64,000 nucleotides of DNA, taken from sequence record NC_103192.1; one strand, written 5' to 3'. Below are positions 8,101 to 32,366 of this stretch, piece after piece. A program made the position numbers and the translations under genes. Under the pieces are notes generated by a model. It searched no databases and was not told the DNA's origin. It saw only the letters and a list, made by a program, of their open reading frames with translations. Source of the DNA: a phage. Within the stretch, counting starts at the first letter, position 1; each line of letters starts with the position of its first letter.

Positions 8101-8498
8101 AAGCTTACTCTTCTGTAGCAGGCAAGGAGATTTCCCGTAACGATGGTAAGCCTGTCACGTACGGTGTTATGTACGGGGCACAAAAAGATAAAGTTGCAGA
8201 TATGCTGGACATCTCTCCAGAGTTGGGACAAAGGGTAATCGATGCGCTTTGGGATGCCAACCCCGGTCTTAAGGGGCGTAAAGAGGATCTGGAGAAATTC
8301 TGGGAAGCAACTGGTAAGAAGTTTATCTACTCTTTTGATGGTCATGCCATCTGGACCCGATCTAAACACTCTTTACTTAATGCATACCAACAAAATGGTG
8401 GTGCATCGTTGTGTGACTTAGTTGGGATACTCATGCACCACCAAATGGTGAAGCGTGGGTGGTACGATGAAGGTGTTCGCCGTATTATCTATTACCAT
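5106..8498 (+). CDS. family A DNA polymerase, exon 1 (contains intein 7119..8087)
   Basis: 3'-5' exo motif FDFEASGL; Pol A motif A IGIDGSNLEQ and motif B RNDGKPVTYGVMYGAQ flanking intein; ORF stop 8502..8504 lies in intron. Confidence 0.85.
7119..8087 (+). mobile_element. intein (about 323 aa) with LAGLIDADG-type homing endonuclease-like insert, in DNA polymerase between motifs A and B
   Basis: N-terminal block CYSGDTQILTEKGW, C-terminal ...VYCVTVP...VCGN followed by +1 Cys; internal LLIAIHDDGH and LFIASLSNWDGW dodecapeptide-like motifs; exteins rejoin to ...SNGDAH|CNNAKAY... matching T7-like spacing. Confidence 0.75.
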
Positions 8499-8826
8499 AA
8501 ATAACATTGTGGCTTCGTGCAGTGATGCACGTCGAAAACCTCTTTAATTGACGGGAAGGCTAAGTTGACTTTTACACCTAAACATGGTAAAAGCTCGATA
8601 TGCTAATCCGCAGCGAAGCATCCGAGAGGATGAACGTTCAGAGACTATCGAAAGCATAGCTCCAGCATAGTTTGGTGTGAAGAAGCGAGTAGAGTAGGCC
8701 AGCAAGTGCGGTCGAAATGAGAGGTGCCTTGGTAACAAGGCAGTGAGATAGTCCGATCCATACGGGAAACTGTATGGCTATGCACGTAATGGTGCGGGGT
8801 AGCTTAACGACCTACCTGAACTATTG
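8499..8826 (+). ncRNA. group I self-splicing intron (no ORF) in DNA polymerase motif C
   Basis: Exon ends on U (..YYH, cat) with IGS-like GUGG at intron nt 10-13; core elements P-like ttgacgggaagg, Q-like aatccgcagcg, R gttcagagactatcgaaagc, S gagatagtcc; terminal G at 8826; splicing restores YYHDEYQLQV (Pol A motif C HDE). Confidence 0.75.
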
Positions 8827-28618: not shown

Positions 28619-29038
28619 ATGAACATTAAATCTAATAATCCGGCATATAGCTTTGATAACGCTTTTTGTCACGGTCCGGCGGCGAAAGGATTCGAAATCG
28701 ATGGTAAACTAATTATTGTCAATGTTGACGGGGAAGAGGTTGCAGTATATCCGGTGGCAGACGTTAAAAGCCGTTTGCAATGCCGCATGGATGTTACCGC
28801 CTACCAGCTTGATCCGGTCCGCATAGTTGCCCTGGTCCTGGAGGAAGAGATCAAAGCAATGCACCACAGCAACAAGTTTATTGGTGACGCTCAAGATAAT
28901 ATGAAGGTGTGCCGCCATAAAGTTAATGAAGTGCTTAAAGAATATGGCTTTAAAGATCTGATGATCAAACGTGAGGAAAAATTCCGCTACCGTAACGACC
29001 TGGCAAATCGGATTTTTGAAATATACGAATCATTATAA
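28619..29038 (+). CDS. hypothetical protein
   Basis: RBS TAAGAGGTAAAAA. Confidence 0.6.
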   Translation: MNIKSNNPAYSFDNAFCHGPAAKGFEIDGKLIIVNVDGEEVAVYPVADVKSRLQCRMDVTAYQLDPVRIVALVLEEEIKAMHHSNKFIGDAQDNMKVCRHKVNEVLKEYGFKDLMIKREEKFRYRNDLANRIFEIYESL

Positions 29039-29057
29039 TTTCTTAACTGAATTATCA

Positions 29058-29086
29058 AGGGGCTTAAAGGCCCCTTTCTTTTTGTC
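29058..29086 (+). terminator. rho-independent terminator closing plus-strand block
   Basis: aggggc-ttaaag-gcccct + TTCTTTTTG. Confidence 0.65.
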
Positions 29087-29639
29087 TGCTCTTCTCCTAC
29101 CATAAACGGCCCCACCCGGCAAGTGGAATAATTGACTAGCCAGCAATTGCCTGCACTGTACAAACATACAGGTAAAATAGTTATTGCATAACCTTTCATT
29201 GTGTGGTAGCAGTGCCATTTTTACACGTTTTTCCTTCCAAAATTGCACGTAATGCCGCTATTGCATAAATTTTAACCTGATGCATATCTTCAATATCTTG
29301 TCAACAACTAAAAATCTTTATAAGTCATACACTTACACCACCACAAAAGCGTGTTCTACGTGAAAAATCGGGTGTAACTATAGCCGCCAGATCTCAGAAT
29401 TTACGTACGCTCACCAGTCTATAGCCTGCTAAGTATTTATTCCAACCATAGAATAACGGAATAGTCAATACCTGCATAAAATAATTATTCGTGTAAACTG
29501 CATAACATAAATCAGCCAGGGTGTCAACATTTTTCGTAAACATCTCGAAATTATCACGATGAGTTATCATAAACAGAGAAATCTTTAGTCGTCTAATGTT
29601 TACTGTACATTACTATACTGGCTGGAATCATTAGATGAC

Positions 29640-30140
29640 TAAGAGAAAGATAAGAAATAGTTAACAATGTAATTGTTTTACCTGTAACAATAAGGCAACT
29701 ATGCAAACGAATGGCATGGCGCGACGGAGTCGCGACATAATATAAAAGCAGTAACCATCACCCCCGTGATAGTTTGTCTGCAAACTATTAATCAGATCAT
29801 AGTTGCCTTGTAGTTAGTTAATCATGACACAATAAGCAAGGCAACTATAGATCTGCTAATAGTTGCCCTGCTTTTATATTATGTCATAGAAACACCCGAA
29901 GGGGTGACCGAAGGTCACCTGGCCTAGCCAGTGAAAGATTATTAACTTGTTAATTGTTAACTTGCTAATTGTTTTCATGCAAACGAATGTCATGGCTTAT
30001 CATATCTGCGTGAACAGTGAAACATGGAAATGATAAATATGTGAACAGTTATCCATGTAAACTATTAGACATGCAAACAATCAGGTGTGCAAAAGTGACA
30101 TAGTATGTCACCAGTATGTCATAGTATGTCAGACAAGTTT
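29640..30140. repeat. repeat-dense non-coding region (alternating GGCAACTAT/ATAGTTGCC sites, palindromes, short direct repeats)
   Basis: GGCAACTAT at 29695 and 29840, inverted at 29792 and 29862; palindrome GGTGACCgaaGGTCACC about 29905; gcaaacgaatg(g/t)catggc x2; ttaacttg(t/c)taattgtt x2; agtatgtca x3. Confidence 0.5.
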
Positions 30141-31616
30141 TTCTCCTCTTTGTCAAGTGCTGCATGGAAAATTTACAAACTGGTATGGTAGCATTTTTGC
30201 GGCCCTGTTTACATTCAGGAGTGTATGTATAATCCTTGTTGTGTGGGCGTTTAGACGTCTGGACGGTCAGAAGTCCGCAGGTTAATATCTAATCTATTGG
30301 TTGCTAACTATATCCCACACAAATAGTAAGAAATATAATTGTTATATGCGTAAACAGTAACTCATGTTATCAATCCATGTATGGATCGCCAGTGGTGCGC
30401 ATAATGGGTATTATGTTAAATTGCCCGTAATGATAACCATTCCCACAATGATAGGTATTCTCATTCACCCCCACAAGATAGGTTGCAAATGTTGTGCCAC
30501 TGTGTGAACGGCCTCACCTATTAATTTGCCCCACTGCCTCGATATTTGAGAATTGTTATAAGAATGAGAAGTATTCCCATTCCGTCCGCCTGGCAGCACT
30601 CCAGTCGCTAACGCTCTCGGGCTGAGAGCTATGCTCGATGCTACCGGCTCCTGACAGGGAGGCACTCCTGTAGGACAGGTCAAAATCGGGGCATAACTGG
30701 ACCCCCCTTCAGATATTTCTGGCTGACTCTTCAGGTCTGTGTGGGAAAAGCCAACCTCTCCGGCAGAGGGGAGGGGGTCAATTAAAAAATTTACGTGGTG
30801 TATGAAGCGCTCTTCAGGCAAGGTGTGTATTATGGGAGGAATCACTCTTCAGGTGATGATATTTGTGGGTGTGATATTTGCTGGAAAGCCAGATATGACG
30901 GGACTCCCGGCGGGGCAGGGGTAGTACAGACAGGGAAAATGTGGAGAATGTGGTGGGTAAATTGATCAGGCAGGTAGAGTATGAAATATGTTACAGGTAT
31001 GTTAAATATGGAGGGTGAATATCTGTAAGATTTGTGTGTAAAATCAAAGACTTAAGTGGTGTTGTGGTATTTTCTATAAATAATTCAAGTTTAATAGGTA
31101 ATATTTGTCTCTATCCACTTTGTGTGGTAACCAGATTCAGATGAAATTGGTTTACAAGTGTATACATAATATACAAATTAAAGATACAAGAAACCCCCCT
31201 CCCCCTTCGGCTACCATTCACCTTTTCCTCTGACTGGTACTTAAACACTTATTCAGACTCTTCAGGTTATCACCCATATATCATATGGCAGTGACTGGTG
31301 TCCTCCGGCCCCTCTTTCGTCACCCGTCCGCTTCGCCATGCTAATGCCATAGCCAAAGGTTCGGTTGTTCACCCTGTTCACTCAGGTGTATCTCCATACC
31401 CCTTCAAACCGAAGAGAACAGAAAACCCGAATTACTCGGTAAAAGAAAAGAGAAGAACTTAATTTTATCAGGATAGGCAAGAATGTCAAGGCATGACTGC
31501 TCACTAAACAAGCAAACAGTCATGTGTGGGAGGTAAGTGATTGTGGTGGTAGGAAATTTAGTTGAAAGATGTGTTATAGGTGCTTCCAGCACTTTAGCCG
31601 GGCAGCTAATTGTGTG

Positions 31617-31832
31617 TCAGTCCAGCGGTTCATCTACTACTTCACTGAAATCAATGTTCAGAGTCTCTTCCCAACCATCGATCTCAGCACAAGAGTGGAG
31701 TTCTTTAGGGTTTACTCCCAAAGCCTCAGCAACAGAGTCTATATTTAACACCTCTGGCAGGTATGATTCATCGAATTCAAGGTAAATCAGGCCACGAGTG
31801 TTGTCAGCTCCACCAAATATTTCTATCTTCAT
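31617..31832 (-). CDS. hypothetical small acidic protein (EIVEE-tail paralog family)
   Basis: RBS AGGAG; MKIEIFGG start and acidic C-terminus like array members. Confidence 0.55.
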   Translation of the reverse strand: MKIEIFGGADNTRGLIYLEFDESYLPEVLNIDSVAEALGVNPKELHSCAEIDGWEETLNIDFSEVVDEPLD

Positions 31833-31952
31833 AAAATCTCCTCTGGAAATGAGAGTGTGAACAGGGTTATACGTTCCAATGCACTGGAATTTATATACGT
31901 TTGCCTCTTCAGGCCATGCTTTAGCATGATAAACTTGTGTGGGCTCGGTACT

Positions 31953-32366
31953 TCATAGTCTGCCACCTCTGAACTCTTCGTTCTCAGGCATGATAGAGAA
32001 CCAGATGGCTATGATGTCCTCCCACGTCAGGTCATCAGCCTCAGGATCTACCTGGAGCGAAGATGGAGAATCTTCAGAATTGAAGTTTTTCTCTTTCACT
32101 GTCTCAGCCAAGGGACATATAGTCACTCCTTTGGATGCCTCTTCAGATGCATGTGTGTTTATCATGTTCCACCCGTGAGTATTCCGGCAACAACTGCTAT
32201 GGACGTAATGATCATCAGGATCACCACCAAAACCTCTGACAATGTTTTCATTGTGCGCTCCATATTCTCCAAATGATGTGTGGATACTATCACAGGAGCG
32301 GTAATGTGTCAACAGAAACGCCGCGAGGGTTTGGTTAAAATCCGAGCGTATGGTGATTTGGGTCAA
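31953..32366 (-). CDS. hypothetical His/Cys-rich protein (start uncertain)
   Basis: ORF from track; no convincing RBS. Confidence 0.3.
   Translation of the reverse strand: MTQITIRSDFNQTLAAFLLTHYRSCDSIHTSFGEYGAHNENIVRGFGGDPDDHYVHSSCCRNTHGWNMINTHASEEASKGVTICPLAETVKEKNFNSEDSPSSLQVDPEADDLTWEDIIAIWFSIMPENEEFRGGRL

Follow-up and report, generated by a model that had tools for sequence, protein, structure and literature searches.

Subterminal gene-free gap of a Vequintavirus genome with a conserved box array and a candidate structured RNA

The gap between two convergent operons

The window analysed here is a stretch of 64,000 nucleotides (sequence record NC_103192.1) from the genome of a Vequintavirus (rV5-like) E. 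coli myophage. At 30480-31400, an initial annotation made from the letters alone had flagged a repeat-bearing tract. It is located in a gap of ~2.5 kb between two convergent operons: + strand genes stop at 29038 and - strand genes at 31617. Positions 29000-31700 match 121 phage records with 90-99% identity, and no open reading frame (ORF) shared with relatives was found in the gap. Annotations of related genomes leave the gap empty or fill it with short ORFs whose position and strand conflict. In the rV5 genome paper, it is a grey box labelled "non-coding" without a proposed function (PMC3606486; Kropinski et al., 2013). The tract is not one element. Since the limits of a direct terminal repeat are 30132-30590 (see below), it starts inside this 459-bp repeat, straddles its inner boundary and extends to the end of the incoming operon. 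Beside the repeat, it comprises a hypervariable junction, a GC hairpin, boxes with the motif CTCTTCAGG, of which a fifth is located just outside the gap, and a block of ~270 bp behind a promoter.

For the conservation profile, the gap was aligned from 20 genomes; values are identity to the window. The Vequintavirus side is designated clade A. Clade B is an uncultured sister lineage from IMG/VR and metagenome pattern scans (loci L008/L028, L025, L027, L030, L031, L040, L041, L046 and L049), for which no GenBank phage representative was found. The clade B gap has the same layout, and blastn aligns just two portions of it, Block 1 (74-78%) and the part of Block 2 next to the promoter (77%). A third lineage was not detected: Distant blastn against 50,697 phage records as well as pattern scans of IMG/VR and metagenomes yielded only Vequintavirus and clade B. 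One IMG/VR match (L029) and nine metagenome matches were discarded as chance matches. The features of the locus are (strand given where one applies):

29040-31616: ORF-free gap between convergent operons (ORF list; 121 record matches; rV5 paper, PMC3606486)
30132-30590: direct terminal repeat of 459 bp, physical genome ends or concatemer junction (Gotham, ECP2309 and CM1 records; PMC7471380)
30591-30715: hypervariable, indel-rich junction inside the repeat boundary (identity 0.28-0.71, gap fraction up to 0.62 in 20 genomes)
30727-30735, + strand: CTCTTCAGG box 1 (kept in 19 of 20 relatives; clade B counterpart at L008 6364)
30755-30780: local GC hairpin CCTCTCC/GGGGAGG, holds a G-rich 13-mer (folding; indel hot spot at its 3' edge)
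30786-31190, - strand: stretch that is C-rich and G-poor as minus-strand RNA and AT-rich overall, resembles a Rho-utilisation site
30810-30818, + strand: CTCTTCAGG box 2 (kept in 18 of 20 relatives)
30839-30935: Block 1 with box 3, GATATTTG in two copies and a G-rich tail (conserved in both clades)
30845-30853, + strand: CTCTTCAGG box 3, inside Block 1
31190-31456, - strand: Block 2, ultra-conserved, predicted non-coding transcription unit (conservation, clade comparison)
31258-31266, + strand: CTCTTCAGG box 4, inside Block 2
31427-31439, - strand: hairpin H1, then a U-rich run, ~17 nt past the predicted start, weakly terminator-like (clade comparison)
31462-31489, - strand: predicted sigma70-type promoter TTGACA-16-TGaTAAAAT (11/12 match, extended -10), no ORF downstream
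31905-31913, + strand: CTCTTCAGG box 5, intergenic, between the last two genes on the minus strand (19 of 19 relatives; likewise intergenic in Gotham)

The direct terminal repeat and the zones beside it

The record of phage vB_EcoM_Gotham is linear, and a 459-bp repeat is annotated at both ends. Alignment of both Gotham ends to the window yields base-for-base limits at 30132 (GACAAGTTTTTCTCC...) and 30590 (...CCGTCCGCC). In ECP2309, an independent record, both ends consist of an exact 459-bp repeat whose limits are identical to those of Gotham. By orthology with these two independent records, 30132-30590 can be assigned as the Vequintavirus direct terminal repeat. According to the Gotham announcement, the terminal repeats measure 459 bp, and all virions package the "same specific start sequence" (PMC7471380). 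Transcription of the gene blocks at either end of the complete Gotham genome runs toward that end. The record of Shigella phage CM1 (L003, MK962749) contains the 459-bp repeat twice in tandem inside the sequence, and the tandem copy is probably an assembly artefact of the terminal repeat. An exact-pattern scan of IMG/VR with a repeat-internal 30-mer gave 0 matches.

In the 20-genome alignment, the repeat shows 90-98% identity, the two abutting zones (29900-30130 and 30590-30700) are indel-rich with 28-77%. A 34-bp insertion at 30613-30646 is present only in this window. The hypervariable zone 29900-30131, which abuts the left repeat boundary, contains 31-nt units with GTGAACAG at 29999-30060. 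A third copy of this unit is found inside the repeat (30339-30369), and the number of TGTRAAC units in the zone varies among relatives. Two palindromes, TGACATAGTATGTCA, at 30096-30131 stop exactly at the repeat. This means, the genome cut falls in TGTCA^GACA.

The initial annotation had stated that the composition of the tract differs from AT-rich flanks. This holds for 30500-30950 (GC 0.51-0.52 vs. 0.35-0.40 in both flanks), but the tract is uneven: 57% at 30591-30785, 37.5% at 30786-31190 and 48.5% at 31191-31456.

A conserved block behind an orphan promoter

Block 2 is the most conserved stretch of the 2.8 kb aligned. Column identity at 31190-31475 amounts to 97-100% across 20 genomes compared to 79-93% in the flanking genes. 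Even one genome with no more than 81-89% identity in the remainder of the region keeps this level. Across more than 20 genomes, in which the flanking genes vary by 3-20%, Block 2 is 99-100% identical. Block 2 contains a C-rich arm at 31193-31206 (in the RNA, G5AG6UUU), box 4, the motif GUGAACAGGGUGAACA and the helices H1, H3 and H4.

The hexamers of the upstream promoter are kept in nearly all relatives, its spacer varies in sequence and length (18 in the L007 group). CM1 has TTAACA at the -35 position, and TTGCAA-17-TATAAT is found at the promoter position in clade B. At 2119-56517 of the window, 22 sigma70-like sites with at least 11/12 matches were found. All 22 point in the direction of the genes around them: The 13 sites left of the gap are on the + strand, the 9 right of it on the - strand. 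Host-type promoters thus appear to be heavily used across the early regions. The site at 31462-31489 is the only one of the 22 without a downstream ORF. Block 2 is thus predicted to have a conserved promoter of its own, as an independent gene for a non-coding RNA (ncRNA) would.

From the predicted start, the two clades have in common a pyrimidine leader, H1, the U-rich run, CUCUUCGGuUUGAAGG and GAGUGAACAGsGUGAACA. Further 3', a short variable linker, H3/H4, GUUUAAGUACCAG and a terminal G-run follow in both. The G-run is GGGGGAGGGGGGUUU in clade A and GGGGG(G)UAGGGGGUU in clade B. The rest of Block 2 has diverged in clade B. The H1 stem is kept though its sequence has changed from CCGAGuaaUUCGG (CCGAG/UUCGG) in clade A to CCAGAAuacgcUUCUGG (CCAGAA/UUCUGG) in clade B. 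In H3, UAUGGCA/UGCCAUA of clade A corresponds to UAUCGCA/UGCGAUG of clade B; in H4, GUGAC/GUCAC of clade A corresponds to GUUGG/CCAAC of clade B. Pairing in H1, H3 and H4 is maintained by double (compensatory) changes between the clades, a comparison of two lineages in a partly hand-made alignment. H1 has a 5-bp stem with GUUUUCUGUU and is weakly terminator-like; intrinsic terminators have a GC-rich stem of ~7 bp or more and then a direct U-run. No canonical terminator was found after the G-run; candidates for termination are Rho in the C-rich stretch or the hairpin at 30755-30780.

In the window, Rfam 15 at the gathering threshold gave a group I catalytic intron at 8489-8776 (+ strand; RF00028, 73.7 bits at a gathering score of 50, full model length) as sole match. 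A permissive Rfam scan of 29000-31700 returned three chance-level matches, none of them in 30480-31500, and ARAGORN found neither tRNA nor tmRNA in the tract. The initial annotation had considered a non-coding RNA and proposed covariance and structure searches as a check. The proposal fits in an altered form, as the 31190-31456 unit behind the conserved minus-strand promoter. The check is divided: There is no Rfam match and the fold z-scores are ordinary; on the other side stand the compensatory changes in the three helices. Block 2 is most simply read as a structured RNA that would be made early by the host polymerase.

A co-oriented array of boxes

The motif reported in four copies by the initial annotation is real, with copies at 30727, 30810, 30845 and 31258 (the positions given were 0-4 nt off) and a further one at 31905. 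The window contains 8 copies of CTCTTCAGG, all on the + strand, vs. 0.47 expected, and 0 of 100 shuffles reached 8. Hence, the cluster is far above chance, the explanation against which a motif count had been proposed, and it is conserved: Between 18 and 20 of the 20 clade A genomes retain the boxes. CTCTTCAGG is the sole 9-mer with at least 3 copies in the gaps of both clades; each gap has five, which agree in strand and location. The boxes keep position and orientation in the two clades while their flanks diverge. The 137-kb Gotham genome has 9 copies, 5 of them within 1.2 kb of one terminal repeat. This is the only cluster, and therefore, CTCTTCAGG is a local array and not a general promoter element. 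Spacings within the 1.2-kb array are irregular (35-647 bp). Binding-site clusters, another suggestion of the initial annotation, survive in modified form as these conserved, co-oriented boxes in two clades. Clustering, shared orientation and conservation, as in terminase arrays of the cosB or pac type, are found at the level of the motif. Most simply, the boxes are read as candidate protein-binding sites for a function at the genome end.

Two other identities were rejected. Against CTCTTCAGG as a promoter element, neither strand has a -10 box at a constant distance, and the whole genome has only 9 copies. The lambda/rrn boxA, the NusB-S10 site with the consensus (C/T)GCTCTT(T)A, fits no copies other than box 2 (CGCTCTTCA) and a single clade B variant (TGCTCTTTAGG). 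The boxA identity fails because boxA has no counterpart to the CAGG of the invariant motif, CTCTTCAGG. The literature search found the motif nowhere in connection with phages.

A sixth near-copy, CTCTTCAGA, is located at 32139-32147, 9 nt upstream of a minus-strand ribosome-binding site, and is kept in most relatives. One of the clade B boxes has a longer string, YCTGAAGAGGCATCCA, in common with this near-copy. The sister clade carries an inserted HNH endonuclease gene between Blocks 1 and 2 (L008 6777-7486). This gene is preceded by a CTCTTCAGG box overlapping a canonical TTGACT-17-TATATT promoter.

From Block 1 to Block 2

The core of Block 1 (30860-30940) is 98-99% identical within clade A. 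Compared to three clade B contigs, Block 1 shows 74-78% and is one of only two stretches alignable by blastn.

As minus-strand RNA, 30786-31190 contains 110 C and 42 G over 405 nt (on the + strand, 110 G and 42 C). The many TGTGTGG-type strings on the + strand reflect this C-rich, G-poor composition. In the best 80-nt window, 30912-30991, the minus-strand RNA has 32 C and 5 G. This is the composition of a Rho-dependent terminator (rut site), for which ~80 nt or more of weakly structured nascent RNA rich in C and poor in G are expected and which is predicted here. The same skew is observed in clade B. We infer that transcription running toward the repeat would be stopped in the C-rich stretch.

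The GC hairpin and the distant C-run

The initial annotation had listed inverted G/C 13-mers. The G-rich 13-mer, GAGGGGAGGGGGT, is located at 30768-30780, and the C-rich counterpart is a 12-mer, ACCCCCCTCCCC, at 31193-31204. Their exactly complementary core has 10 nt (GGGGAGGGGG) and occurs once per strand in 64 kb. This core is present in this genome but not conserved in relatives. It was the ground for the idea that both arms pair over ~420 nt, with a structured element or the remains of a mobile insertion between them. This is now the least probable of all explanations considered. The G arm lies exactly at an indel hot spot, with insertions of up to ~70 nt in relatives, whereas the C-run, part of Block 2, changes by small length variants only (1-3 bases, 5 of 20 genomes). 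In relatives, the longest match of the G arm to the distant C-run shrinks to 5-12 nt.

In every clade A genome compared, the G-run pairs with CCTCTCC (30756-30762) just upstream, and the G-rich 13-mer forms the 3' arm of a local hairpin. A structured element bracketed by the G/C arms is contradicted by both the short matches and this local pairing. Among the 20 aligned clade A genomes, the folding energy of this hairpin is -12 to -21 kcal/mol in 19; the exception is L007, where an insertion makes the segment longer and the energy is -35.8 kcal/mol. At the corresponding position, clade B has CCTCCCtctGGGAGG. On the minus strand, the 30755-30780 hairpin was flagged as terminator-like, with UUGGCUUUUC in clade A and no U-run in clade B.

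The mobile-insertion remnant is likewise not supported. The bracketed segment is present in all 120 matching Vequintavirus records, the proposed presence/absence comparison found no relative without it, and terminal inverted repeats or target duplications were not found. Furthermore, clade B carries the HNH gene between the two arms. This gene is the only mobile insertion seen and is located elsewhere in the gap arm.

Left arm of the gap and neighbouring observations

The left arm of the gap contains four copies of ATAGTTGCCYTG in alternating orientation (29680-29890) and a perfect 18-nt inverted repeat (29734-29751/29868-29885). It looks like an iteron/operator cluster and a better origin candidate than the flagged tract. 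In the gap of the window, neither Chi sites nor a perfect DnaA box were found; one DnaA box has 1 mismatch. In clade B, three perfect tandem DnaA boxes (TTATCCACA) are situated in the region equivalent to the repeat (L008 5845-5884; L025, L027).

A 139-aa gene at 28619-29038 borders the gap and is missing in five examined relatives (Alma, APCEc02, FV3, nomo and nimi). A homologue is found in another genomic context on the 153-kb IMG/VR contig L009. In GenBank, 19 records designated 'UNVERIFIED Campylobacter phage' (MG0656xx) are Vequintavirus genomes with ~90-93% identity to the window.

Interpretation and alternative explanations

With a probability of about one half, the tract is a cis-acting subterminal control region with a new candidate structured RNA and a predicted protein-binding box array. 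Its position beside the genome end accounts for most of what the initial annotation had noticed. The following course of events is proposed. Early in infection, host RNA polymerase would fire the Block 2 promoter and read toward the terminal repeat. The product would be a G-rich structured RNA of ~265 nt with a pyrimidine leader, H1 and H3/H4 that ends at G5AG6UUU. RNA polymerase would next enter the C-rich, G-poor stretch, where Rho may stop transcription short of the repeat. The boxes may bind a protein, probably phage-encoded, that would act on the genome end at packaging start or in concatemer-junction processing.

Several points weigh against this proposal. The fold z-scores of Block 2 are ordinary (-0.70 for the minus and -0.41 for the plus strand). 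The covariation comes from two lineages only, and H3/H4 emerge only in a hand-curated alignment. The helix between leader and G-run is a low-complexity pyrimidine-purine pairing with many possible registers, and the full-length minimum-energy folds of the two clades disagree in the central domain. Part of the near-identity within clades could stem from recombination sweeps close to the genome end instead of selection on each base. In the literature, no transcriptome or start-site map was found for any Vequintavirus; promoter, RNA ends and Rho termination are therefore predictions. In clade B, 3 of 5 variants have lost the counterpart of box 4 from Block 2 by deletion, and consequently, boxes and Block 2 RNA may be unrelated.

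Block 2 might instead serve as an RNA-primed replication origin, in which an R-loop hybrid at G5AG6 would provide a 3' end to prime a T7-like replisome in the AT-rich stretch. Promoter, non-template G-run and AT-rich region are present as sequence features in both clades: A strong promoter is followed ~250 nt downstream, where conservation ends, by a G5-6/G5-6 run and then by ~230 bp at 35-37% GC. Genes for a family A DNA polymerase and a gp4-like primase-helicase are present in the phage, and the layout recalls ColE1 RNA II, mitochondrial LSP-CSBII and T4 oriF. The GC-skew switch of rV5 at 104425-105475 corresponds to about 30090-31205 of the window, but according to the rV5 authors, it coincides with the change in transcription direction (PMC3606486). 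Moreover, the left arm rich in iterons and inverted repeats (29680-30130) and the three DnaA boxes of clade B are more origin-like, so that this origin is considered unlikely, albeit worth keeping in mind. Slightly less likely still is that the whole arm is a packaging signal at the DNA level, with boxes and Block 2 as sites for terminase or accessory proteins and a promoter that feeds the junction like phiOR of T7. The arm directly adjoins a boundary of the repeat, the boxes share one orientation and are restricted to this genome end, and the promoter points at the repeat; T7 maturation needs transcription into the junction. The large terminase of the rV5 type resembles that of Felix O1-like phages, among which UAB_Phi87 has a short terminal repeat. 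However, protein-binding arrays keep motifs and not 270 contiguous bases, Block 2 is 600-870 bp away from the cut, far for a site of the cosB or pac type, and the compensatory changes in H1, H3 and H4 argue for a nucleic-acid fold.

The conservation could also be without function, i.e. decayed operon sequence homogenised by recombination near the ends, with the boxes as relics of intergenic signals. Box 5 and the near-copy CTCTTCAGA at 32139 do occupy normal spacers between genes of the minus-strand operon, the fold z-scores are unremarkable, and small indels are frequent nearby. Decay, however, predicts more divergence than in genes, and Block 2 diverges less, even in the genome with 81-89% identity. 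In addition, the architecture survives in the sister clade at ~75% identity with promoter hexamers and helices kept, which renders this explanation improbable. Even less can be said for a small protein encoded by Block 2, either from a 54-aa ORF on the + strand (31298-31462) or from a 62-aa ORF on the - strand (31404-31592). Both persist in most clade A genomes, and a 45-aa + strand ORF in clade B has VHxVHS...NP..YS.KE in common. However, both start with GTG without a ribosome-binding site, the products of clades A and B differ N- and C-terminally, and the nucleotide alignment needs several 1-2 nt indels; clade-to-clade indels in Block 2 have lengths that are not divisible by three. First, second and third codon positions are frozen to the same degree, and the two ORFs persist because the DNA is invariant. 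A test for protein-coding genes found no ORF common to the clades; the others persist only inside invariant DNA, and a 126-aa ORF is unique to this window. Both the small protein and the bracket or mobile remnant discussed above are close to excluded.

Going beyond the control region with its candidate RNA, one may speculate that Block 2 represents an undescribed class of phage structured RNAs (~265 nt) made by host polymerase from a promoter that faces the genome end. Its G5AG6 end would either seed an R-loop or primer or be needed in cis for replication or maturation of the repeat junction. The CTCTTCAGG boxes would recruit the partner protein, and the system would be a phage counterpart of priming at mitochondrial LSP-CSBII by a T7-like replisome. 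This extended scenario is regarded as rather doubtful.

Comparison with known systems

The locus itself is already known: The "non-coding" box of rV5 and the repeats of Gotham belong to the same locus in the same genus, and the gap is orthologous with 90-99% identity. The internal elements are newly described. In the rV5 and Gotham papers, the repeat is not placed in the anatomy of the gap, and boxes, Blocks 1 and 2 and the orphan promoter are not described. In contrast to the picture of a fixed repeat obtained here, rV5 was described as circularly permuted. In BME3, a phi92-like Justusliebigvirus, the terminal repeat is located within a gene-free stretch of ~3 kb, and the record repeats the terminal segment. 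This gene-free region contains neither CTCTTCAGG nor the G-run nor a strong orphan promoter.

The likenesses to T7, to cosB/pac sites and to primer origins are analogies, not memberships. The right end of T7 (phiOR) also has a gene-less promoter a few hundred bp inside a terminal repeat that points at the repeat. Short direct terminal repeats are common to both, and the replisome here is T7-like. Unlike phiOR, which is used by the phage RNA polymerase, the promoter here is of the host sigma70 type and precedes a 270-nt ultra-conserved block with helices. Both the lambda cosB R sites and the P1 pac hexamers are short asymmetric motifs clustered on one side of an end made by terminase. By contrast, the boxes here are spread irregularly over 1.2 kb and much farther from the cut. 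ColE1 RNA II, LSP-CSBII and T4 oriF/oriG likewise combine a promoter, a non-template G-run and then AT-rich DNA. Human CSBII has G6AG8 compared to G5AG6 here, and the mitochondrial case also uses a T7-like replisome. Unlike at these RNA-primed origins, there are only sequence features here, and the iteron-rich left arm is an equally good candidate for an origin. The inner end of the T5 terminal repeat, a proposed injection stop signal, resembles the gap in being ORF-free at the kb scale and rich in repeats and palindromes. In clade B, the three DnaA boxes add to this likeness. It differs by a 10-kb repeat vs. 459 bp here and by unrelated motifs. To our knowledge, two-step DNA transfer is not known for rV5-like phages.

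Significance

Phages of the rV5 type are among the most often isolated E. coli phages and are used in therapy and biocontrol cocktails. The mapped ends, the orphan promoter, Block 2 and the boxes provide targets for engineering, with ends located and regions designated that should not be deleted. Furthermore, the mapped ends allow genome orientation to be corrected in databases. The defined elements can be targeted by experiments on the start of replication and packaging in phages with short terminal repeats. If the reading of Block 2 as a structured RNA is true, it would add a phage RNA family that is absent from Rfam.

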